Counted from the stretch's first letter, positions 12,652 to 60,993 are shown. The stretch: DNA of 61,662 bases from an uncultured Candidatus Saccharibacteria bacterium (GCA_964529785.1 CAZHAQ010000004.1:1-61662), one strand, 5' to 3'. Translations and numbers: made by a program. Notes: a model not told the origin generated them from the letters alone.

Positions 12652-15153
12652 TTATTTGTGAACTTTTTCTTCTTTTAGGCTAAAAGTGAGACCTTTTTTA
12701 TTGGCGCTGACAGCGATTACATCGCCCTTCTGGTATTCTTCATCAAGAAGTCCTTCCGCAATATGGTCTTCAATTTCATCTTGAATTAATCTTCTCATTG
12801 GACGGACACCATTTTTAGCGTCATATCCTTTTTGAAGCATGAATTTTTTAGCATTATTGTTTACAGTTAGTCCAATGCCTTTACCGACTAGTCTTTTTCT
12901 CAATTCGTCAATCTGTAGGTCCATAATGCTTAATGCATCCTTCTTAGTTAAAGCTCTAAATACAATTGTTTTGTCAATTCTGTTTAGCAGCTCAGGGCGC
13001 ATTAATTTTTTAAGTTCATCAAGTACCTTATGCTTGTTTTCTTCGTGAAGATCGTCTAAGTCTTCAATATCTTTTTTACCGATCGCCGAGAATCCAAAAC
13101 TAGCTTCTTTTTGCAGTTTATCTGCGCCAACGTTACTTGTCATGATGACTATAGTATTTGTGAAATCAATGGCGCGGCCTTTAGCGTCAGTTACCCGGCC
13201 ATCTTCTAACAGCTGTAATAGCATGTTGAAAACATCTGGATGTGCTTTTTCTATCTCATCAAATAGTACAACGCTATAGGGCTGGCGTCGTATCTTGTCG
13301 GTTAATTGTCCGCCGTCGTCGTAGCCAACATAGCCTGCAGGCGCACCAACAAGACGCGATACATTATGATGTTCGCCGAATTCACTCATGTCAATCTTAA
13401 TTAGTGATGATTCTGAGCCGAAAAACTCTCTGGCAAGGACTCTGGCAAGCTCAGTTTTACCCACTCCAGTAGGCCCTAAGAAAATGAATGAACCGATTGG
13501 CCTGGTGGTCTGGCCGATGCCTACCCGGTTTCTTCTGACTGCCTTAGCTAAAGCTGTTACGGCTTCGTCTTGGCCGATAATATATTTACCTAAGTTTGAC
13601 TCCAAATTGCGCAAGTATTTAGCTTCAGACCTGATAACTTTATTAACAGGTACGCCTGTCATACGGGCTACTACATCTGCAATATCTTCACTGGACAGCT
13701 TCAGCCGCTTTCCGCCTTTTGTTTTTTCCAAGATCTTATCGATTTCAGAATGTATCTGGGAAGCTCGCTGCTTATATTCAGCTGCTTTCTGATATTCTTC
13801 AGCATCAACAGCATCATCTATCCTCACATTTAGCAGCTTTAATTCTTTCTGTAGCTTTCTAATCTCTGGAGGGGTTCTGCCTTTACTTACCCTTAGGTTA
13901 GCTGCCGCTTCATCCAGTAGGTCAATTGCCTTGTCTGGCATAAATCTGTCATTAACGTATCTTTTGGCTAAATTGACGGTATCCTGCAAGACTTCATCGC
14001 CAATTACAACTCCATGGAACTCTTCATAATGCTTGCGTAATCCTTTTAAGATAGCTAGCGTTTCCGGTACTGTAGTTTCCGGTACCTGAACTGGCTGGAA
14101 GCGTCGTTCTAGGGCTGTGTCTTTTTCTATATATTTCGTATATTCATTGGTTGTTGTAGCCCCAATCAGCTGTATCTTTCCTCTAGCAAGTGCTGGCTTT
14201 AATATATTACCGGCGTCCATGGAGCCTTCAGCGGATCCTGCTCCTACTATTAGGTGAAGCTCATCAATAAAGACAATAGTTTTTTTATCATCTTCCACTT
14301 CGCTCATAACTTTTTTTAGCCGCTCTTCAAACTCACCGCGATATTTCGTACCAGCAATCATGCCGGCTAAATCAAGCATTATTATTTTTTTGTCCAGCAG
14401 CGAATCTGGAACGTCTTCGGAAACTATTCTCTGGGCCAGGCCTTCTACAATGGCAGTTTTACCAACACCCGGCTCGCCAATTAAAACCGGGTTATTCTTT
14501 GTGCGTCTGTTCAGAATGGTGATAACCCGCTTAATCTGCGGATCGCGTCCCACTACAGGATCAAGTTTTCCAGTTCTAGCTTGAGCAGTTATATCACTGC
14601 CGTAGGTATCAAGAGCGGTTTTACCACGTGGTTTTTTAGACCGCCGACGAGACGATGCGCCTGATCCGGAATCACTAGAATCATTATACTGTTGTCTGTT
14701 AAGGAATTGCTCCAGCTCACTTATAATGCTGTCTGTATTGACATTTAAATCTCTTAACAGGGTGCTAGCTCGGGCATTTTTCTGGCTTAAGATACTGTAT
14801 AAAATATGCTCTGTACCGCAGAATTCCTGGTTAAATTCCTGGGCAAGCTCATAGGCCATTCTAAGCGTCAGTTTAGCGGCTTCACTTAAACCTTTGGCGC
14901 CCATGTTGATAGTAATAGAGTTAGGCGCGAGATTTAAGGCTACTCTTGCGCGTTCTAGTGTTATGCCTGATCCCTCCAGGACTTTAGCGCCCAATGAGCT
15001 GTCCTGGGCCAATACGCCAAGCAATAAATGTTCAGTACCGATATACGGGCTATTAAAACTTCTAGCAATACCGTCTGCATGCTTTAGGCTTTGCAGCGCA
15101 TTATCGGTTAAATGATTCAAAAATTCTTGGAAATCTGGTGATTGAGGCATCAT
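12652..15153 (-). CDS. clpC: ATP-dependent Clp protease ATPase subunit ClpC
   Basis: Two Clp-N repeats, GEPGVGKT and GPTGVGKT Walker A motifs, short UVR-like middle domain, SFGF ClpP-docking loop. Confidence 0.93.
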
Positions 15154-15212
15154 ATAAATTCCTACCCTTGCTAGCGATAGTTTAAATAATCGCTAGATTC
15201 ATTGTAGCAGAA

Positions 15213-15239
15213 TTAGCACTCATAGTGCAAGAGTGCTAA
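15213..15239. promoter_or_regulatory. CIRCE operator (HrcA site) upstream of clpC
   Basis: TTAGCACTC-atagtgcaa-GAGTGCTAA, exact consensus with 9-nt spacer, 60 bp before the clpC start. Confidence 0.95.
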
Positions 15240-15264
15240 CTGCTAATTTAGAATTTATATTTTT

Positions 15265-16419
15265 TTACTGGCCGTGTTCTTCTATCGCCTCTAGAAGACT
15301 GCTTTCAAGCTGATCTTTGCGCTTTAGTTTTTGAACCGGTTTTACGGCTTCTATATTTGCTTCGTTTGCTGATTCGGAAGACTTGTCAGCAGAAATATCA
15401 ATATCGTAACCAGTCAACTTGCTAGCCAGTCTGACATTCTGGCCGTTTTTGCCGATGGCAATACTTAACTGATCTTCGTCAACTGAAACTTTAGCTTTCT
15501 TAGCAGCTTCGTCAATCTGTACTTCATTTACTTTGGTTGGGCTAAGGGCATTGTTAATGAAAGTTTTTAAATCTTCATCCCAGACTACTATGTCAATTTT
15601 TTCCTGCTCCCCAACTTCGCTCATTACGGCATTAACTCGTGTACCGTGTCCGCCAACGAATGTGCCTACTGGATCTACACCCTGTACGCTGGAAGCAACT
15701 GCAATCTTGCTTCTTACGCCTGATTCACGGGCTATACCCTTGATACTGACGGCGCCAGATTCCATTTCCGGAACTTCGCCTCTAAATAACCATTCAATAA
15801 ACTCTGCGCTTCCTCTTGATACAACTAGCTGCGGTCCCCTGAAGCCTCTTTCAATGTCTTTCAAATATACTTTAAGACGCTGTCCAGGATAGTATCTTTC
15901 GCCTTGGATCTGCTCGCTTCTTGGCATGATAGCTTGCGCCTTTCCAAGCTCCATTCTAACTATGTTGCCTTCAACGCGGGCTACTATACCATTTACGACT
16001 GTGCCTATCTTGTCTTCAAATTCGGCCATTACTATTTCTCGCTCAGCTTCTCTTAACCTTTGCAGGATAACCTGCTTAGCGGTCTGGGCGGCAACTCTAC
16101 CGAAGCTTTCAATCTTCTGGTGTACTTCAACTATTTCGCCGATTTCAGCATCTTTATTTATCTTTTTCGCGTCGCTTAGGCTGATTTCTATATATTCATC
16201 TTCAACTTTATCTACAACCGTTTTTGAAATGTAAGCGTCCACTTCCCCGCTATCGATATCCATAGTCACTCGGACATCTTGTTCGCGGTCTCCGTAGTCT
16301 CTCCTGTAAGCGGCCGCTAAGGCTTGCTCTACTACTTCCTGAACTATGTTTTCAGAAAGATTTTTTTCTTCAGCAATAGCCTTAATAGCTGTTGCTAGCT
16401 GCTTTAGATCAAAATTCAT
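15265..16419 (-). CDS. nusA: Transcription termination/antitermination factor NusA
   Basis: FGRVAAQTAKQVILQRLREAER, S1 and two KH domains, AIGKNGQNVRLASKLTG. Confidence 0.97.
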   Translation of the reverse strand: MNFDLKQLATAIKAIAEEKNLSENIVQEVVEQALAAAYRRDYGDREQDVRVTMDIDSGEVDAYISKTVVDKVEDEYIEISLSDAKKINKDAEIGEIVEVHQKIESFGRVAAQTAKQVILQRLREAEREIVMAEFEDKIGTVVNGIVARVEGNIVRMELGKAQAIMPRSEQIQGERYYPGQRLKVYLKDIERGFRGPQLVVSRGSAEFIEWLFRGEVPEMESGAVSIKGIARESGVRSKIAVASSVQGVDPVGTFVGGHGTRVNAVMSEVGEQEKIDIVVWDEDLKTFINNALSPTKVNEVQIDEAAKKAKVSVDEDQLSIAIGKNGQNVRLASKLTGYDIDISADKSSESANEANIEAVKPVQKLKRKDQLESSLLEAIEEHGQ

Positions 16420-16481
16420 TTTTTATACCTTTCTTTTGTTTAGTAAAAAATAAGATTTGCAGTATATGTAGTGCTGGGATT

Positions 16482-16505
16482 AAAAAACCCGACCATCTGG
16501 CCGGG
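16482..16505 (-). terminator. Intrinsic terminator in the nusA 5' leader (attenuator)
   Basis: Minus strand CCCGGCC-AGAT-GGTCGGG-TTTTTT, just downstream of the promoter at 16520-16548. Confidence 0.7.
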
Positions 16506-16519
16506 ATTACTACAACTAA

Positions 16520-16548
16520 ATAATATCACTGATGCATTTGTTTGTAAA
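16520..16548 (-). promoter_or_regulatory. Sigma70 promoter for nusA
   Basis: TTTACA-17 nt-TATTAT with TG extension on the minus strand. Confidence 0.6.
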
Positions 16549-16567
16549 TAAGAATGGCTTATTAAGT

Positions 16568-16597
16568 AAAATGGACTAGCTTTTACTAGTCCATTTA
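16568..16597. terminator. Stem-loop terminator
   Basis: aaatggactag / ctagtccattt inverted repeat with T-rich tails on both strands. Confidence 0.7.
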
Positions 16598-16609
16598 TTT
16601 TTTTGAATA

Positions 16610-16657
16610 CTAACGTATTAATTGCCGATTTTCTCGGTCTTTTTGCCAGCCGTACAT
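16610..16657 (-). CDS. Candidate 15-aa peptide MYGWQKDRENRQLIR
   Basis: ATG preceded by AAAAAGGTA, A-rich leader, upstream TTGTAT-18-TAAACT promoter, downstream terminator. Confidence 0.35.
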   Translation of the reverse strand: MYGWQKDRENRQLIR

Positions 16658-16741
16658 ATTGTATTTACCTTTTTCTTTTTTTTGTTTTTTTGTAGGTACT
16701 TATAGTTTAGCAAAGTCAGCCGGGCTGATACAATAGTAATT

Positions 16742-24957: not shown

Positions 24958-27900
24958 CTACTGCACCACCACTTGATTGTCGCCAACTATTTGTTTAAGC
25001 TCATCAAGCGATTCTTGACTAGACTTTATCCCGGCCGGTAGTTTTATTATTTGCTTGCTGTCTGCTTCACCGACGACTAATACTACTTCTGTTTGACCCT
25101 TATGATTATCTATAGTTTTTTTCAAAGCGATTAATTGCTCCTGGTTCTTGCTGTCGTTTAGTCTAATGTATACCCGAGCATCAACCGAAGCACTGACAGA
25201 ATTTTTATTAGCAGCAGCTGTAGGCATTGTTTTAGCTTTACTCTTAGATTTGCCCGGCAGTTTAACAGATCTCCCTCTTGGCTGGTAAGCTTCGGCCTGT
25301 GTTATGGTTACCTCTCTAGCTTCATCAACTAGTACTTTCATATCTGTCATTAGTTCGCCGGTTTGACGATCGCGGGCATTTAGCTTGCCTTTTAAGATCA
25401 CCACCCTATCTCTCTCCCAGATTCCAGTTGTCTGCTGATAGACACTAGGGAATAAAACAATTTCTATTTCGCTTTTGAGATCTGCGATTTTTACAAATGC
25501 CATTTTCTGGCCGTTCTTTGTGGTAATCTCTCTCATTTCCTCGATTGCACCGCCAATTACTACATTCTTGCCGTCCATGTCTGGTACAAGTTCAGATATT
25601 GGCATGCTCAGTTCGGTAAGATAAGTTTCATAGGCTTTTAAGGGGTGTTGAGATAAATATAGTCCAAGTAGTTCTCTTTCCCATTTAAGCTGTTCCTGCT
25701 TATTGTACTCTATACTTGCAGGCTCTAGACTAATCTTAGGGTCCATATCAGCTACGGTTGAGTCACCAAATAATCCTACTTGGCCTGCAGCTCTCTCTTT
25801 CTGAATACGGTTAGCAAAAGAAAGTAGTATATCAATATTGTCTAGCAGCTTGCTTCGTTCATCAAAACGGTCAAACGCCCCCGACTTTATTAAACTTTCC
25901 AATGCCTTTCTGTTAACTAGTCTTGGATTTATTCGCGAAAATACGTCTTCTAGCTTACTGAATTTTCCTTCTTCACGAGCTCTAAGTATCTCTTCTACAG
26001 CACCAGTGCCGACATTCTTGATAGCATTCATTCCGAATCTTATCGGGTCATGAAGCGGGTCGCCAGTTGGTACTACCGCAAACTCTAAGTATGATTCATT
26101 GATGTCGGGAGGCAGTACTTCTATGCCTACGTGCTTGCATTCTGTAATTTCAACACTTAACCTGTCAGTATCGTCATAATCACTGGTCATAAGAGCAGCC
26201 ATGAAGGCTGATGGATAGTGGGCTTTAAGGTAGGCGGTCTGATAGGCAATCAATCCATAACACGCCGAATGAGACTTATTAAATGCATAATCGGCAAAGC
26301 CTAGAATATCTTTCCAGATTTTTTTGACTACATGTTCTGGTACGCCGTTTTTTATTGCACCATCAATAAACTGCTGGCCCATCTTATCCATGACATCGCG
26401 TTTTTTCTTGCCGATTGCTTTTCTTAAAGTGTCAGCTTCGCCGCCTGTAAAGCCGCACATTTCCTTGCTCATCTGCATAACTTGTTCCTGGTAGACGATT
26501 ACACCATAAGTAGATTCCAGCGAGTTCTTCGCCAAAGGATGATCATAGGTTATTTCTTCTAAACCATTTTTTCTTTTTACAAATGAATCAGTAAGGCCGG
26601 CGGTTAATGGGCCTGGCCTATATAGTGCACACATGGCAATAATGTCACTGAACTCTGTTGGTTTTAGCTCTTTTAAGTATCGTTTCATGCCTGAGGATTC
26701 AAGCTGGAATACACCGGTAGTATCTCCTCTCTGAAGCAGCTCAAACGTCTGCTGGTCATCTAAGGGAATGGAGTTGATGTCTATTTCTTTCTGATAAACC
26801 TTTTTAATAATACGCAGCGCATTCTTAATTATGGTTAGGTTGGACAGGCCAAGAAAATCCATCTTAAGCAGTCCAAGCTCTTCAATTGGGCCCATGGAAT
26901 ATTGGGTGGCCACTACGCCTTTTTGGGCCATTTCAAGTGGTACGAATTTAACAATATCATCTGGAGCTATAACTACTCCTGCTGCATGAACCCCATGACT
27001 TCTAATCGTGCCTTCAAGCTTGGTAGCCAAATTAAAGACCCTAGCGGACTGTTCATTTGTTTCATTTTCCCGTTTTAAATCTACATTCTCTGTCAGTGAA
27101 GTGGCTAGAGGTATATGTCTACCTTGAATTGGTGGCGGTATCATCTTAGCCAGCCTGTCGGCTTCTGCATAAGGTACTTCCAGTACTCTGGCTACATCCC
27201 GAACGGCATTTCTGGCTGCCATTTTGCCAAAAGTAACAATGTTGGCTACTCTTTCACTGCCGTATTTTTCTACACAGTACTGGATCACCTCATTGCGCCT
27301 GGTATCCTGAATATCTATATCAATATCAGGCATGCTAATACGATCAGGGTTTAAAAATCTTTCAAAAAGCAGATCGTATTCCATAGGGTCAAGTTCAGTA
27401 ATACGCAGTGAATAAGCTATTATTGACCCTGCGGCTGAGCCTCTACCAGGGCCAAAGACTATACCATTATCTTTACCCCATTTAATGAAGTCCCAGATGA
27501 TTAAGAAATAGCCATTAAAGCCCATATTATCTATAACCTGCAGCTCATATTCAGCCCGCTTTAATGTTGCCGGATCCAGCTTTTCTTTAGCCTGCTCAAC
27601 GCTTATACCCTTGGAGTCTTCCTCGCTTACCCCTCCATAGCGCCAAGCCAGTCCTTGGTAGACAAGCTTGGTTAAATAGGATTTTTCAGTTTCATTATCT
27701 GGCACTGGAAAATTAGGGATTAGTATTTTACCTAGCTCCAAGCTAATTGAACAGCGGTCAGCAATTTCTTTAGTGTTGGTTATAACCTCAGGGTGATCAT
27801 TGCCCCAGCGCTCAATTAGCTCATTAGGGTCGGTAATATGGAGCTCCATATTAGATAGGCTCATCCGGTTGGTATCGGATAAAAATGAGCCAGTCTGGAC

Positions 27901-49362: not shown

Positions 49363-49430
49363 CTTTTAAAGTAAATCCTTTTAATAGCTGCTTTAATCCA
49401 AGCCTAGCATACTTCTTGTGTAATTTTGAT

Positions 49431-49460
49431 AAAAAGAGACTCTTTTATGTAGAGCCTCTT
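49431..49460 (-). terminator. Intrinsic terminator after nrdH
   Basis: Minus strand AAGAGGCTCT-loop-AGAGTCTCTT-TTT. Confidence 0.6.
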
Positions 49461-49481
49461 AGAAATACTGCTTTTTTTATT

Positions 49482-49730
49482 TTAACCTAACGCTGGAGCT
49501 AATTTAGCTAAGTTAAACCCTACAACCACTTCTTTTGTGTCGTCTTCTTTGGTGACAACTGTAACTGGTACAGTGAGTGCACCGCTGATCGCTAGAGCTT
49601 CCTGCTGGCGGTGAGGCTGTTCATCAATATTTACTTCTTCATACTGATGGCCTTTGTTGCCCAGATACTTCTTAACCATTACGCAGTAGGCGCAGGTATT
49701 GGTTGTGTAGATTGTAATGTTTTTAGCCAT
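49482..49730 (-). CDS. nrdH: NrdH-like glutaredoxin
   Basis: YTTNTCAYC, TVPV, VVGF; NrdR boxes upstream. Confidence 0.82.
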   Translation of the reverse strand: MAKNITIYTTNTCAYCVMVKKYLGNKGHQYEEVNIDEQPHRQQEALAISGALTVPVTVVTKEDDTKEVVVGFNLAKLAPALG

Positions 49731-49847
49731 GATTACCCCTAAAACATTTTAATTATTTTAATTTTGCTGTTTTTTGATCTTGATAGTATAAGTTGCTTTA
49801 TTCTTGCTGCAGTTCTTTATATATCTGACCTTCAAACAAGTCCTACA

Positions 49848-49896
49848 ACCCAGTATATAGTGCTTATGATATTCGTCAATACGCTATATGTTGTGT
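49848..49896. promoter_or_regulatory. Tandem NrdR boxes overlapping the nrdH promoter
   Basis: ACCCAGTATATAGTGC (49848-49863) and ACGCTATATGTTGTGT (49881-49896) versus consensus acaCwAtATaTwGtgt; minus-strand promoter TTGACG-16-TATACT at 49852-49879. Confidence 0.75.
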
Positions 49897-49921
49897 TTTG
49901 TACGTAATATCAGCTATTTTG

Positions 49922-51062: not shown

Positions 51063-52835
51063 TTAGTTGGCTATTTCGAATTCTTTTAACTGTTTTTTTA
51101 TTTTTTCAGTTGGAGTTTTATTCTGCAGAGATAAAAGCTTGGCATATATTCCACCGGTCTTAGAAAGCTCCCCAGGGGTGCCAATTTCGTCTACTTGACC
51201 GGATTTAATAGTAATTATTTGATCTACCTGCTGGATAGTGCTTAGTCTATGAGCAATAATAATTGTTGTCCTGCCTTTCATAAGTCTTTCCAATGCTTCT
51301 TGTACCATCATCTCTGATTTACTGTCTAGTGAGCTGGTGGCCTCATCCAGTATAAGAATCGGCGCGTCTTTCAGGATTGCTCTGGCAATGGCAATACGCT
51401 GCTTTTGACCACCAGACAATTTAAGGCCGCGTTCGCCAATTTCGGTATCATATCCCTTTTCCAGCTGGCTGATAAATTCGTGGGCATTAGCGGCTTTTGC
51501 AGCTTTTTCTATCTGGCTCATATCTGCGCTTTGCATAGAATAGGCGATGTTCTCTTTGATTGTTCCGCTGAATAAAGCCGGGTCTTGAAAAACTACAGCT
51601 ATATTTTCCCTTAGCGACGACTGAGTAACTTTAGAGATGTCCTGATCGTCTATAGCAATTACTCCGTCTAGCGGTTTATAAAGCCTCATTAATAGGTTTG
51701 TGATTGTTGTTTTACCTTCGCCACTCTCTCCGACTAGCGCAACTTTGGTATCGGGCTCAACTGTAAAACTTAAACCGCTTAATACTTTCTTTTTGTCATA
51801 TGCAAAAGTTACGTCTTTAAAGTCTATCTTTCCAGAATTGACTATAAGCGACGCCGCATTTTTGTCGTCCTCAATATCAGGAGTTAAACTCATAATCTCA
51901 AAATAATCCTTGCTATCTGCAACGGCTCTTTGGGTATTTTCAACAAGAAAGCTGATAGTAAAAATCGGTATCCTTATCTGCATGGCATACAGAATTAAGG
52001 CCACTGCCTGCCCCGGGCTATAGCTACCATTTGCGCCGCCTACAAAAATCAGCAGGTAGACGCCAAAGAATATCAGGTTTAACACTATACGGCGCTGAAC
52101 GTCGCGCTTATGCCACAATTTGGACTGGGGTTTATTAGTATCAATTACGCCCTGCAACTGTTTATCAAAGAATTTAAGTTCTCTTTTTTCCTGAATAAAG
52201 CTTTTAACTACCTTTATCTGGCCAATGCTTTCCGCAAAACGCCCAGTGGCCATGTCGCGATAGTTATTCTTCTTGTGCTGGTACTGCATCCATCTATTAC
52301 TTGTCTTAACGGTCATAAAAATATAAATCGGATAGAGTGCAAATAGCAGCGCAGCGATCGGCCAGCTATAAAAAGCAATGATAGCAAGAGCAAAAATAGT
52401 GCTAAAAATAAACTGCAGGAAGTTATTGCTGAACATATGCATAAAGCTAGCAATCTGCTCAATTGACCTGTTTAAACGGTTTATAATTTTACCGGTTAAT
52501 TCTTTATCAAAGTACTTTTGTTGCAGGGATAGGATATGCTCATAGTAGCGATAACTAAGCAGGCGCTGCAGTTTTTCGGCCATCTGATCTCCATAATACC
52601 CGCCGACATTGGAAATAATCGTTGTACCAAAATCCATGGCAAATATACCAATAGCCAGAAAGATCATTACTCCCATATTAGCTTCAGTGCCCCGGCTAAT
52701 TTCATCTATTGCCCGCCCGCTTAAATAAGGCAGCAGCATGTTAAGAAGGCTAAGCATTACGCTTAAAATGCTTACCGTTAAATAGTAAGGCCAAAGGCTA
52801 GAAGTATGCCGGAGTATTCGCCATATATATTTCAT
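51063..52835 (-). CDS. ABC exporter, fused permease and ATPase
   Basis: TM domain; GESGEGKT, LSGGQKQR, LDEATS, AHRL. Confidence 0.95.
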   Translation of the reverse strand: MKYIWRILRHTSSLWPYYLTVSILSVMLSLLNMLLPYLSGRAIDEISRGTEANMGVMIFLAIGIFAMDFGTTIISNVGGYYGDQMAEKLQRLLSYRYYEHILSLQQKYFDKELTGKIINRLNRSIEQIASFMHMFSNNFLQFIFSTIFALAIIAFYSWPIAALLFALYPIYIFMTVKTSNRWMQYQHKKNNYRDMATGRFAESIGQIKVVKSFIQEKRELKFFDKQLQGVIDTNKPQSKLWHKRDVQRRIVLNLIFFGVYLLIFVGGANGSYSPGQAVALILYAMQIRIPIFTISFLVENTQRAVADSKDYFEIMSLTPDIEDDKNAASLIVNSGKIDFKDVTFAYDKKKVLSGLSFTVEPDTKVALVGESGEGKTTITNLLMRLYKPLDGVIAIDDQDISKVTQSSLRENIAVVFQDPALFSGTIKENIAYSMQSADMSQIEKAAKAANAHEFISQLEKGYDTEIGERGLKLSGGQKQRIAIARAILKDAPILILDEATSSLDSKSEMMVQEALERLMKGRTTIIIAHRLSTIQQVDQIITIKSGQVDEIGTPGELSKTGGIYAKLLSLQNKTPTEKIKKQLKEFEIAN

Positions 52836-52877
52836 TACTTTGCCAGTATAAAGTGTTTACTATTTATTTTAAATAAT

Positions 52878-53603
52878 CTTCTTTCGCAGTACATAACCGA
52901 CTTATGTGCTATGAGAGAAGGACAGATGTATATAAGAAAAAGAAAATTAATAAAGGAGGAGCTAAAAAGGCTCAAAACTCAAAACTTTATTAATTATGAT
53001 CATGGAAACTGGGGCCCATCGCCTTTGCCTCAACGCAAACACGGGAGAGAAGGGTTATGTTGTGTTCGCGGATTCATCAGCGACAGGCCCCAGACAGTGG
53101 TAAGAGAGTAAGCACCTAAGGCGCTTGCTTAAGTCTCTTACAGCGAAACGAGGAGGACGGAACTTCTTCCATATCTGCAGGGTTCCCAAGCCCACAGACA
53201 GTTTGGAAGGCTCATTGCACTCAGGCAACCGTTTGCAGTCGTTTCAAGCTGCAACCGACATCCTCCTCGAAAATTGCAGAAGCGATTACCTAGCAAGGAA
53301 GTCAGCGGCAAAAGAATGCCCCAGCTCACCCCGAACTATAAAGTTCACGCTTCCACAAGAAAGCCACGAACGGACGAGTTCTATGTCAAGGGTTTTAAAC
53401 CTTAATTTTGAAAACGCCCGTCCGTGATCCGACGACTGACCCTTCCCACGAGGATCGTTGCCGTCAGAGCTTGATCATTTTGTCTGTAGTAAGACAATGT
53501 TACCAACTTGCCGGCAGCAAACTAGTAACATTGTCTTACTTTTATATATACATCTGTCAAAGTGCACTTGGGAATTTTAAGACATGCAAAAACTCAACCA
53601 AGT
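52878..53603. ncRNA. Structured non-coding element A (unknown family)
   Basis: 14-bp terminal inverted repeat GACAGATGTATATA (52921-34 / 53545-58); many internal stems including a perfect 16-bp stem (53488-503 / 53525-540); flanking hairpins; no credible ORF; functional strand ambiguous. Confidence 0.65.
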
Positions 53604-53611
53604 CGTAATAC

Positions 53612-53640
53612 ATATTAAACTTTTTTTATATTTTTGTCAA
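53612..53640 (-). promoter_or_regulatory. Sigma70 promoter pointing into element A
   Basis: TTGACA-17 nt-TAATAT on the minus strand. Confidence 0.75.
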
Positions 53641-53657
53641 TAACTACTTGTAATTTT

Positions 53658-54298
53658 CTTCGCCTGATGCCACTACCGAGTAATGAAATCGGGTGAAGGG
53701 TGTAAGTTTAATTATAGATATGTGAGGGAGTGTCAGGAGCAGATGGCTCAACTTATGTCTCTACCTCTATATAGGCAAAACCAATTACTTAGACTAAGCA
53801 ATCAGCAGTTGTTGGTGCAGCTCCCGGTTTGACCCGTATGGGATGAGGAAAGGCTGGTGCCTTGGTGGTCAGGGACCGGGAGCTGCACGCTCTTTTTGCT
53901 TTATAAGCGACTCAAACGGACTGTCCGGAGTACAAGCTTTTATAAAGCACGAAACGAGCTGGAGAGGAGTACTGCCCATGAGGACTACGCGTTTGAAGGA
54001 CTAGCCTTCAGCGACGTTATCCTTGGAAGCTGCTCAAACCCTCCAGCTCTATCCCACAGGACATCGAACCTCTAGATTCCCGCCGACAAAGGCTAGATGC
54101 ACTACCGTGGAAGTTGGTCGGGGTGGAACTCCAAAATACCCGGCTGGGAGCGGATACTTTGGCACCCCGTTGATCTAATAATTAGCATTAACAGACAATA
54201 GTCGCTGCAGACCAGTTCAATAATCTGCACTGACTAATGCCTGTTAACTCTTACACCTTAAGTTACGTCCCTGGGGAGCAATCACTCAACCTCGGAAC
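53658..54298. ncRNA. Structured non-coding element B, same plan as A
   Basis: Closing stem GGTGTAAG / CTTACACC (53699-706 / 54250-257); perfect 14-bp stem GTGCAGCTCCCGGT (53815-28 / 53875-88); further long hairpins; flanking hairpins share motifs with A. Confidence 0.65.
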
Positions 54299-54304
54299 CA
54301 GCTT

Positions 54305-54333
54305 ATTATAGCTACTAGTTCATACTTTTTCAA
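54305..54333 (-). promoter_or_regulatory. Sigma70 promoter pointing into element B
   Basis: TTGAAA-17 nt-TATAAT on the minus strand. Confidence 0.75.
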
Positions 54334-54353
54334 GAGGTGATTTACTAAAAAGT

Positions 54354-56153
54354 CTACCAGCCGCCACCACCACCGCCGCCTCCTCCGCCGCCAGCGAAAC
54401 CACCGCTAAATCCTGAGCCGCTGGAGCTTTGGGGTGCAGAAAAGGATGAAGCTATACTGCCATTAACAGCCCCGCTTAACGAACTGGCAAGATATATAGC
54501 ACTAAAAGAATCAAGATTGCTGCCTTGGTACCAGCTAGGCTCCTGCGTGTAAATACTGCTAAACTCTTCTGCCCACTCTTTTTCTACATTAAAAACAACA
54601 GCATATGGTAGAAGCTTCTCAAAAAAGTCTACTGTTTTTTCTGGTTCTGTTGCATTATCCGCATACTTGGCTCCGGGACTTTGCATCATCTTAATACGGT
54701 CGGCTTCTGCTGTTTGAAGATACATTTTTAGACCCAAGGAATACTCCTTAGCAGCCACTCCTTTTTCAGTTCTAGCAGGCATTGCAGCTATGCATATGAC
54801 GGTAATTACTGCTGCAACTGCTCCTCCAATAACTATTAACGAGTCTGCTCTTATGATACCGGCTGAAATGACAACCCCTGCCATTGCCAGCAGAAACCAA
54901 AGTTTAAATCTAGATTTTAAAGGATGGGATATTAAATAATTATTTTCTTTTAATTTTTTATCTAAATTAGTCTTAAAATCGTGGGCGGGCTCGCTTAATT
55001 TACCCCTTAAATCATTAAGTTTAATAATTTTGCCAATATTTTTATCATTACCGAACAGCCCGTTTAATATTATTTTCTCAAACTCTTCCAGTTGAGACTG
55101 GTCGTCATTTGTTAGCTCTAAGGAGTATTCTAGCTGGTCTTTTAATATCAGTCGGTCTTTCTTGGATTCAATAATCTTTATATAGCCCCTAACTGCCAGG
55201 TCAATAATTGTTGCAGTTATATCTTTCTTATCGGCTTTAAAGTCGGCAATATAGCCCACTTCAGCTGGCTTTAAATTATCTGGTGGCCCGTACTGTGGAA
55301 TTATTGTTGATTTGCCAGCTGGGTCGCGGCCGTTTTTATACCAGTAGTATATTGCCCAGCCGCCAATTAAGAATGGAGCGACAATTAACACTGCCAGCCC
55401 CGGCATTAAGTCTTTAATTTTTTCTGCTATTGTAGGCGCTTGAAAGTAATTTTTAGCAAATCCAGCGACAATAGTTAAAGTTTGACCAGCTTCTAGATCA
55501 TAGGCATTTGCGCGGATTATACTACCATCATTTTCTACCGTGCACTTGCTGTCCGTCTGCCCAAAGCTTCCTGTAAAACAAACTTCGTCATTGTTGACAG
55601 ACAAGCCATCTGGCAAATGTATTCTGGCGTTAACATGAGCAAACCGCTGGCCCCATTCTGTTCCATTTATATCCCAATAAAGTTCATCATGACTATCATG
55701 AAATGTTATTACATTCCTAATTGAGTATTCTATCTGATAGTGTTGAAGCCCGGTAACCGTCCGATTTGGATCGCCGATTTTTAGCACTAGGTTGCTATTC
55801 TCTGAGCTAGTAGTAAACTGCGTAGGTGCGCCTGTTGATGAATCTACTTTAATTATTTTAGGCTTTAGGGCCTGACTATTATACTTCTTGGGAATCGCTC
55901 TTAAAATGCCGTGATTATTGCCGTTAAAGGTAAGGTAAATATCTTCTTTGACAGTCATCTCACCTTGTTTATCGGTGTTATTTAGAAAATAATCGGCTGA
56001 AAATTCGTTAATCAGAAAATCATTAACATCTGCACTAGCCCTGCTAGGATTAAAAGCGGATGCTGTAACTAAGACAGCAGCAAGAAAGAAAAGAAGTTTC
56101 GCCCACCCGAAACTCTTTCTAGTCATTAAAATTAATTGATTTAACGGCCTCAT
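54354..56153 (-). CDS. DUF2207 family membrane protein
   Basis: ELYWDING, ATIIDLAVRGYI, EKLLPYAVVF, Gly-rich C-terminus ending GGGGW; true start may be ATG 56126. Confidence 0.92.
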   Translation of the reverse strand: MRPLNQLILMTRKSFGWAKLLFFLAAVLVTASAFNPSRASADVNDFLINEFSADYFLNNTDKQGEMTVKEDIYLTFNGNNHGILRAIPKKYNSQALKPKIIKVDSSTGAPTQFTTSSENSNLVLKIGDPNRTVTGLQHYQIEYSIRNVITFHDSHDELYWDINGTEWGQRFAHVNARIHLPDGLSVNNDEVCFTGSFGQTDSKCTVENDGSIIRANAYDLEAGQTLTIVAGFAKNYFQAPTIAEKIKDLMPGLAVLIVAPFLIGGWAIYYWYKNGRDPAGKSTIIPQYGPPDNLKPAEVGYIADFKADKKDITATIIDLAVRGYIKIIESKKDRLILKDQLEYSLELTNDDQSQLEEFEKIILNGLFGNDKNIGKIIKLNDLRGKLSEPAHDFKTNLDKKLKENNYLISHPLKSRFKLWFLLAMAGVVISAGIIRADSLIVIGGAVAAVITVICIAAMPARTEKGVAAKEYSLGLKMYLQTAEADRIKMMQSPGAKYADNATEPEKTVDFFEKLLPYAVVFNVEKEWAEEFSSIYTQEPSWYQGSNLDSFSAIYLASSLSGAVNGSIASSFSAPQSSSGSGFSGGFAGGGGGGGGGGGW

Positions 56154-60167: not shown

Positions 60168-60206
60168 TATTTTAATTATAACAGGTTAGAATACATAAGC
60201 TTCATA

Positions 60207-60235
60207 TTGACTTTTCATTGCGCTTGTGCTATAAT
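60207..60235 (+). promoter_or_regulatory. Strong sigma70 promoter pointing into element C
   Basis: TTGACT-17 nt-TATAAT with TGn extended -10. Confidence 0.8.
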
Positions 60236-60241
60236 TATTTT

Positions 60242-60993
60242 GTTTAAGTTGAGTTTTAACTCCTTAAACGAACAGTGACAGAATAGAGAATAAATTCTGA
60301 TTCACATTTTGGGGTTAGGATGGATTGACCTTATTGGCTGTAAAGCTATTTATAGTAAGCAAGGTCTATCTATCCTGAAGACTGCCCCATCCGTCCAGAC
60401 CATGAATTGAGGACAAGGTGAAGAAGATGATGAACCCCATGCTCACCAAGGTTCTGCTTGCAGTCTTGGCGCTGTTTTTTGCCGGCTTCTTGCTGGCGAG
60501 CATCACTGAGAGTAACAAGCAGCCGAAGCTCTACACTACGGGAACAAGAGAGTGCCTGTCGTATCAGACTGGCGTCTACTGCTCAGAGGCTGAAGTCGGT
60601 ACCGTCCAGTTCGTCTCCAGCCTGGCTGAAGGCGATAAGATCTGCGTGTCGGATCATGTCAAGGGATGGAGAACCGAATACGAGGTCGTCAGCCTGCCCG
60701 AGAGGCACAACGATGAGTCTCGAATCATCTCTCTGATGGATTCATCCGGCGCAGTGCACGACATGTCCATTCACTCAATCGGACTGCGGGAGCGCGGAGA
60801 CAGCCCTTACGGGCTTCCTCCTGATGTTTACCTTCCATTTCCGAAGGGACCGTTCGTGTACCGGTACGTCTGTCCATTCCCGAACTGAGCTCAGTGGGGG
60901 TCCCTTTTCGCAGCCGCGATCACACCCCCAGCTCATCTATTTCTCTATTCTGTCCTTTACCTTAGATTTAAATTATTTAAGTCTGCGGTAAGG
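60242..60993 (+). other. Structured cassette C: same scaffold as A/B, enclosing a GC-rich ORF
   Basis: 5' hairpin 60242-69; 14-bp terminal inverted repeat GACAGAATAGAGAA (60277-90 / 60941-54); long 5' UTR hairpin ~60310-60389; 3' hairpin 60895-60930; abutting hairpin 60955-93. Confidence 0.65.
60418..60888 (+). CDS. GC-rich orphan protein with N-terminal signal/anchor
   Basis: GAGGAC RBS before GTG; hydrophobic KVLLAVLALFFAGFLLA; 4 Cys; hand count 34/60 G+C at 60481-60540 versus 20/60 in yajQ 61021-61080. Confidence 0.7.
   Translation: MKKMMNPMLTKVLLAVLALFFAGFLLASITESNKQPKLYTTGTRECLSYQTGVYCSEAEVGTVQFVSSLAEGDKICVSDHVKGWRTEYEVVSLPERHNDESRIISLMDSSGAVHDMSIHSIGLRERGDSPYGLPPDVYLPFPKGPFVYRYVCPFPN

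Follow-up and report, generated by a model that had tools for sequence, protein, structure and literature searches.

Within a 61,662-nt stretch of DNA from an uncultured Candidatus Saccharibacteria bacterium (GCA_964529785.1, contig CAZHAQ010000004.1, positions 1-61662; hereafter the window), we identified a non-coding region at positions 52878-53640, Element A, that is probably a real RNA gene of about 730 nt on the minus strand, belonging to the same undescribed Saccharibacteria RNA family as the neighbouring Element B. The source genome, G000 (0.82 Mb, 41 contigs), carries two members of this family in tandem: B, which is of the conserved type, followed by A. An excess of folding, the strand, a frame shared with other members, matches to family models and synteny are established for A. 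An original prediction, made from the sequence alone, had proposed a large multi-domain non-coding RNA, and this is supported as the best reading; A holds no credible open reading frame (ORF). To that reading we add the strand, a promoter, a domain map, and a family in which A is a diverged second member of a tandem pair.

Folding, strand and domain structure of Element A

All of the stems named in the original prediction are present in the sequence, and four were recovered by a repeat finder. Fully complementary stems of 11/11 nt (52945-52955 with 52985-52995) and 9/9 nt (53149-53157 with 53261-53269) were returned by this program. The perfect 16-bp stem lies inside a hairpin formed by 53488-53511 with 53517-53540 (24 nt at 88%), and the terminal inverted repeat pairs 52921-52939 with 53540-53558 (19 nt, 89%), with a perfect 14-bp core and a 638-nt span. 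Two 8-bp stems are found in the minimum-energy fold, one pairing 53141-53134 with 53107-53100 and the other lying within 53093-53079 paired with 53023-53009. The description of A as almost fully paired was overstated, with 502/741 bases (68%) paired in the best fold. The pair probability exceeds 0.9 for 188/251 pairs of this fold.

Comparison with shuffled sequences, a check that had been proposed for both strands, placed the folding of A (52878-53640) far above chance in either orientation. The folding energy is -250 kcal/mol on the plus strand, where shuffles average -183.5 (z -16.4), and -293.2 kcal/mol on the minus strand, where they average -207.4 (z -13.6); on each strand 0/20 shuffles were as stable. 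We additionally scanned local folding across the window, in 410 windows of 300 nt with a GC-corrected residual z on both strands. The top minus-strand outliers of the entire 61.6 kb were A (53251-53550, residual z -6.7) and then B (z -4.9), and neither A nor B stood out in the plus-strand scan. The fold of A on the minus strand reaches -294.4 kcal/mol with 28 G-U pairs, and that on the plus strand -250.2 kcal/mol with 17; the orientation equivalent to the minus strand was the more stable in 10/10 family members tested. The RNA strand of A is the minus strand, because both flanking genes, a promoter matching the consensus at 10/12 positions and the lower folding energy all lie there.

The folding of both strands well above chance, together with a terminal inverted repeat of 14-19 bp over 638 nt and many near-perfect palindromes, would also fit a DNA-level element, either a non-autonomous transposon remnant or a recombination or palindrome hotspot, that makes no RNA. 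We consider this very unlikely, as A is present in a single copy in the G000 genome, with no direct repeat beside the inverted repeat and no transposase adjacent in the window, and as searches of phages and plasmids and a motif scan of viral contigs gave no match to it. Its position is furthermore syntenic across genera, with a promoter just upstream, and the differences between the strands in folding and in G-U pairing are consistent with selection at the RNA level. The specific case of a miniature inverted-repeat transposable element (MITE) was rejected on the single copy and the lack of a flanking direct repeat, the inverted repeat notwithstanding.

The domains of A, from its promoter to a terminal hairpin, are given in Table 1; the two ends are joined by a helix, P1, which is followed by a long hairpin, P2, and a multi-way-junction core. 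The promoter starts about 10 nt beyond the terminal hairpin of B; 8 promoter-like sites, this one included, were counted over 2 kb, where shuffles would give 2.7. A hairpin resembling P2, of about 20-25 bp, was found by inspection directly after P1 in B and in at least five other members. Besides its five well-defined domains, the core contains a stretch (53364-53274) that is poorly defined in the fold. No sequence relatives of the core were found by BLAST against 400 class genomes and 49 loci, or in an alignment with the closest relative of A, the metagenome locus L077.

Element B and its RNA family

Element B folds at z -9.05 on the minus strand (gap half 53641-54353). A BLAST search of A and B against 60 relatives gave matches limited to the 3' end of B, in three genomes, and each of these has a non-coding gap of 650-750 nt at the equivalent place, behind a promoter. 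We built a covariance model (R1) of the 3' 160 nt from four sequences, which matched 10/20 genomes of the same GTDB family, G000 included. In complete loci, the R1 match lies just before the next gene, which is mostly an ABC exporter; in G001 and G012, the exporter gene is missing and a gene of NUDIX size follows the RNA instead. Across the 10 matches, both-side changes were identified in 13/27 pairs of the 3' module, and 97.8% of cells are paired vs 43-47% with the partners slid, in an alignment fitted to the model, which favours the structure.

Metagenome contigs were scanned with the exporter protein, yielding 40 loci, and family-type elements were identified upstream of the exporter in six loci (L071, L073, L074, L075, L083 and L107). 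Two loci (L100 and L101) have gaps of 1065 nt with none of the features of the family, and about 18 exporter loci have gaps of <400 nt and no family-type element. Lineages in which the DUF2207 and ABC genes are directly adjacent have no RNA between them. Two larger covariance models were made without A, R2 from 10 and R3 from 16 of the 3' modules. R3 was detected in 4/151 sampled genomes of the class, namely G000, one more genome of its family and 2/3 of a second family, and R2 in 4/151 genomes of the order, all in the first GTDB family; both runs used strict filters, and the counts are detections rather than limits. An exact-pattern scan of genome contigs returned 25 loci, of which 2 are from Saccharibacteria and the others are chance matches.

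Members of the family share a syntenic position downstream of pheT, in some cases with a DUF2207 gene in between, and are followed by the ABC exporter gene or whichever gene comes next. By inspection, we identified a common build in 17 elements, a set that includes A and leaves out a truncated copy in G002. It opens with a promoter, a short conserved run with a hairpin, and the 5' half of P1. Next come a hairpin of roughly 20-25 bp and a variable core, and the 3' end is made up of a small hairpin motif, the 3' half of P1 and a terminal hairpin. The promoter lies about 45-60 nt upstream of P1, on the strand of the flanking genes, and is placed in A as in the other 16. The P1 span ranges from 507 to 1037 nt across members, and the enclosed cores are very different in both length and sequence. 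Both strands of P1 vary in sequence between genera, yet their pairing is retained; P1 was found by inspection in all 17 elements, A included, so that this count does not amount to an independent test. For the 5' module, RNAalifold returned no consensus pairs. The terminal hairpin is accompanied by a U-run in L074, L075 and G049.

We additionally observed small ORFs and tRNA-like modules within the cores of individual relatives. A conserved Cys-rich small ORF of about 40-55 aa is present in the cores of L046 (1209-1475), L048 (1321-1491) and L073 (1228-1494), with a strong ribosome-binding site in front and no Pfam match; it is absent from A and B. Other small ORFs are found at the equivalent relative place in L071 and in L074, L075 and G049, the last of which carries an L075-type element by inspection of its sequence. 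ARAGORN identified tRNA-like modules in the cores of L073 (1039-1111), L074 (1915-1993) and L075 (1924-2001), one being a tRNA-Leu(taa) of 73 nt and two having an irregular 8-nt anticodon loop. The same program found 0 tRNA or transfer-messenger RNA (tmRNA) genes in positions 52000-55000 of the window.

Finally, the family of B is transcribed in this organism, because contigs from RNA runs cover the centre of B without other organism-specific cover. Positions 53851-54169 of B are covered by contigs of three metatranscriptome runs from two studies. Elsewhere in the 9 kb examined, these runs have no organism-specific cover: the only other pieces are matches of about 33 nt at 54360-54396, where the DUF2207 gene has its Gly-rich end. 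They have 3 mismatches in 3/4 cases in run X17 and in 3/3 in run X18, and we take them to come from other organisms. A further run, X15, looks like DNA. Save for the pieces at 54360-54396, RNA-library contigs in runs X17-X19 include none on A or on the flanking genes, and contigs cannot show absence.

Element A as a probable diverged family member

The 3' end of A was recognised by both of the larger covariance models. R3 ranked A second only to B, with 36.1 bits and E-values of 2.8e-5 (window) and 3.8e-4 (genome), and R2 gave 19.9 bits (E 0.0078). At the 5' end, a promoter-free hidden Markov model (HMM) of the 16 other members matched A weakly, at 53599-53545, with 12.9 bits and E-values of 0.0083 (window) and 0.11 (genome). 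No other non-self match in the genome scores as high, the runner-up reaching 7.0 bits, and an earlier 5' HMM of 10 members had returned A at E 0.021. The 5' and 3' matches are separated by about 560 nt, share a strand and follow each other in the expected order, within one promoter-led unit beside B; by our own rough estimate, the chance of this arrangement is of the order of 1e-5. A match of a 3' profile on contig C9 (E 0.044) was rejected as lying inside a coding region.

In the metagenome locus L077, an A-type element of about 870 nt lies downstream of pheT and ahead of an exporter gene. In P1 and the sequence that follows it, this element is nearly the same as A (88% identity over 25 nt, E 0.18) and, like A, it is without the loop bases most conserved in the rest of the family. 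The cores of L077 and A are not alignable, the alignment being confined to the two ends. We additionally noted in L077 an internal tandem duplication of about 200 nt within the core (about 940-1340) and, at about 1740-2010, a second promoter and family-like 5' hairpin leading into a 152-aa ORF.

In a sensitive blastn search, A had no match to B below E 1, and its best E-values against the 49 loci were 0.066-0.18, all at the 3' end. BLAST of A against the 400 class genomes returned only short AT-rich matches, with E above 7e-4. The clamp helix of A is closer to the clamps of other genera than to that of B. A is thus either an old paralog or an import rather than a recent copy of B, because A and B are without alignable sequence and the clamp of A resembles those found in other genera.

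Several observations weigh against A as an RNA gene of this family. The four-sequence model R1 gives no match on A, sequence-only 3' profiles (A5 and A9) miss it, and a 5' profile that includes the promoter stays above E 1 genome-wide. L077, itself of the A type, is in the training set of R3, and the E-values of this model are rough. The best-conserved bases of the family, which sit in the 3' motif and in internal loops within the terminal hairpin, are changed or deleted in A in the R3 alignment. One close relative was found, so that the core helices are without covariation support, and the near-perfect pairing of the core could also arise at the DNA level. The G-U excess and the difference between strands may partly reflect base composition. 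No canonical terminator was found after A, and no terminator-like site on the minus strand of the stretch. RNA contigs were found over B alone.

The loss of the most conserved loop bases, and the lack of an RNA contig on A in the runs examined, would equally suit a decaying duplicate of a resident RNA, that is, an RNA pseudogene that is perhaps transcribed and has no function. A second element is moreover found in G000 only, the other 8 complete loci of the GTDB family having nothing between the 3' module and the next gene. We nonetheless judge a pseudogene unlikely. A and B share almost no sequence, so that either their split is old or A came from another lineage, and yet A retains the 10/12 promoter, the perfect 14-bp P1, the 25-bp hairpin and the 188/251 pairs above 0.9. 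Random decay over such a time would break the promoter and helices, and the intact structure therefore counts against this explanation, as do the presence of an A-type relative at the equivalent locus elsewhere (L077) and the little junk that a 0.82-Mb genome retains.

In a further alternative, A would serve the ABC exporter gene as a very long structured 5' leader or cis-regulator, with read-through or occlusion from the transcription of A setting exporter expression. In every complete locus, the terminal hairpin of the family stops immediately ahead of the following gene, in most cases the ABC exporter, and that of A abuts the -35 box of the exporter promoter, with no terminator found. A leader is distinctly unlikely, however, as the exporter has its own promoter-like site about 10 nt before the start codon, both here and in relatives, and as G001 and G012 keep the RNA without the exporter gene. 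In addition, the U-run of the terminal hairpin in L074, L075 and G049 is terminator-like, and no riboswitch or leader family of Rfam matches.

A conserved protein-coding frame had been named in the original prediction as the finding that would count against a non-coding RNA; no such frame was found, as L077 aligns with A at two ends only and the four longest ORFs of A are without Pfam matches. ORFs of 101 and 100 aa on the plus strand and of 63 and 57 aa on the minus strand do overlap A, and some family members hold small ORFs behind strong ribosome-binding sites, which would favour A encoding one or more small proteins. This is highly improbable: none of these four ORFs, the longest in A, has a Pfam match at E up to 0.1, and the two long ones run opposite to the promoter and flanking genes, one of them starting with TTG. 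The closest relative has no alignable core, so that no frame is conserved, and the Cys-rich ORF of relatives is found in neither A nor B.

Both elements lie in a gap of 1518 nt (52836-54353) that holds no credible gene, between two minus-strand genes. The earlier claim that this gap is by far the largest in the window is borne out when ORFs of at least 120 aa are counted, the runner-up being 559 nt; with the cut-off lowered to at least 100 aa, two plus-strand ORFs without a family match intrude into A. The A-B junction is not an assembly artefact, because contigs of several public runs carry the 1518-nt stretch, with 0.98-1.00 of sampled words present. These include runs of study P4, which is not flagged as a possible source of this DNA.

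Table 1. Coordinates of Elements A and B and of neighbouring features in the window.
Feature	Position	Strand	Details
Element B	53651-54333	minus	promoter 54333-54305 (11/12 matches); RNA about 54298-53651; 3' module 53800-53652
A promoter, sigma-70-type	53612-53640	minus	-35 53640-53635, 17-nt spacer, -10 53617-53612; 10/12 consensus
A 5' hairpin, part of 5' module	53566-53603	minus	mean pair probability 0.96-0.98
A helix P1, 5' strand	53545-53558	minus	14 perfect pairs with 52921-52934, probability 0.99
A helix P1, 3' strand	52921-52934	minus	repeat finder, fold and R3 alignment
A long hairpin P2	53488-53540	minus	25 pairs, 4 G-U; contains the perfect 16-bp stem
A core	52996-53478	minus	7-bp helix 53478-53472 with 53002-52996 closes a multi-way junction
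A core domains, five well defined	53468-53428, 53426-53365, 53269-53149, 53141-53100, 53093-53009	minus	fold
A 3' hairpin	52945-52995	minus	11-bp outer stem around the small hairpin motif of the family; aligned by R2 and R3
A terminal hairpin, likely 3' end	52878-52920	minus	without clear U-run; abuts -35 box of the exporter promoter
ABC exporter promoter-like site	52845-52873	minus	9/12 consensus matches; exporter start codon at 52835
Local gene order		all minus	pheT, DUF2207 membrane protein, B, A, ABC exporter, NUDIX, FKBP

An 11-nt perfect complement links the terminal hairpin of B (53679-53689) and the start-codon region of the exporter (52829-52839). We rejected it as a signal, as it is about at chance level by our own estimate and, by inspection, absent from G006 and G011.

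Elsewhere in the window, the second-largest ORF-free gap (49363-49921, 559 nt) is AT-rich (GC about 0.34-0.38) and lies downstream of the FKBP gene. An ORF-free gap of 250 nt on the plus strand (60168-60417) falls in the 300-nt window that is the top plus-strand folding outlier (residual z -3.5), and has no Rfam family at gathering score. Other folding outliers, with residual z of -2.5 to -3.5, were found at 27151-27450 and 15001-15300 (minus strand) and at 16351-16650 (both strands), and one of these overlaps a 322-nt ORF-free gap (16420-16741).

Known large RNAs and what the family may mean

We investigated whether A corresponds to an RNA that is already known. With a cut-off of E 1, a cmscan search with all 4227 models of Rfam 15 returned no match within either element, and the loci of three relatives were likewise without one; over the whole window, no family reached its gathering score. 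The one listed match, to the P8 small RNA, falls within the ABC exporter gene (52686-52776) and was rejected; at 23.6 bits (E 0.23), it is below the gathering score of 60. A is neither the ribonuclease P (RNase P) RNA nor the tmRNA of the genome, which are already present on contigs C26 (241 bits) and C1 (63.5 bits), respectively. As a side observation, the model of the small bacterial signal recognition particle (SRP) RNA (RF00169) has no match in the 97.6%-complete G000, though RNase P RNA and tmRNA were found.

The original prediction had placed A in the size class of GOLLD, ROOL and OLE without matching it to any of them, and it is none of the three. The nearest known kinds are these large ornate RNAs, with GOLLD as the best analogy. 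In a recent structural report (PMC12286853), the conserved parts of GOLLD are described as surrounding a variable linker, in some cases with tRNAs in it, that is unresolved in the cryo-electron microscopy structure, and some large bacterial RNAs are said to form RNA-only cages. The likeness lies in the size class, of 700-800 nt or more, in the conserved regions flanking a variable stretch, and in the tRNA-like modules that ARAGORN identified in the variable cores of L073, L074 and L075. In contrast to GOLLD, which no sequence here matches at E up to 1, conservation in the Saccharibacteria family lies in two short end modules, about 60 and 110 nt long and joined by one clamp helix, and its variable part is heavily paired, whereas the linker of GOLLD is unresolved. 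The locus is moreover a syntenic one on the chromosome, not a phage or a tRNA island, and no match came from phages or viral contigs.

The same report (PMC12286853) describes ROOL as large and heavily structured, without known protein partner or function, and as encoded in phages or prophages near tRNA islands. The Saccharibacteria family is similarly a large, heavily structured bacterial RNA, and differs in the lack of an Rfam match and in its fixed chromosomal site. OLE, which is described in the literature as well conserved in sequence across Bacillota, is likewise highly structured, of about 600 nt and expressed as its own gene; in the Saccharibacteria family, which has no Rfam match, only the ends are conserved. 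The family is located between a DUF2207 membrane-protein gene and an ABC exporter gene, but in other lineages these genes are adjacent without the RNA, and therefore no partner is implied.

The raiA motif and HEARO resemble the family as large structured RNAs from comparative genomics, and differ in giving no match at E up to 1. HEARO goes with insertion sequence (IS)-type nuclease genes, whereas no IS-type nuclease gene is found near A. Literature searches on Saccharibacteria and Patescibacteria, at the level of listings and abstracts, and a look-up of terms in two 2026 preprints returned no description of such an RNA, and supplements may bear on it.

On this reading, a sigma-70-type promoter of its own would drive transcription of A on the minus strand, and A would be made as a stable stand-alone RNA. 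P1 would clamp the two ends, and the clamp and end modules may serve folding, stability or end protection, or the binding of a partner. The variable core, which is fast-evolving, heavily paired and about 500-1000 nt, might act as a structural scaffold, as in large 'ornate' RNAs. A probably no longer binds the partner of the terminal hairpin of B, because the most conserved loop bases of the family are lost in A. We hold any particular mechanism for A with much lower confidence than its membership of the family.

A bolder proposal, which we put forward as a speculation and consider unlikely, is that the family is a new giant RNA class of 'clamped cargo' type, in which a short, conserved 5'/3' clamp presents a fast-evolving paired core, some members bearing tRNA-like domains and Cys-rich ORFs. 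B and A would be non-coding versions, and may self-assemble or co-assemble into a higher-order RNA particle, as GOLLD, ROOL and OLE do.

Large, intricately folded bacterial RNAs without assigned function are few, and conserved ends with a covarying clamp around a hypervariable structured core would be a new architecture, in which the cores of some relatives hold tRNA-like modules or small ORFs. Saccharibacteria genomes are tiny, with little room for ballast, and yet this one spends 1.5 kb on two such RNAs. The tandem pair is a natural experiment, in which one copy has kept the conserved loops and the other has lost them.
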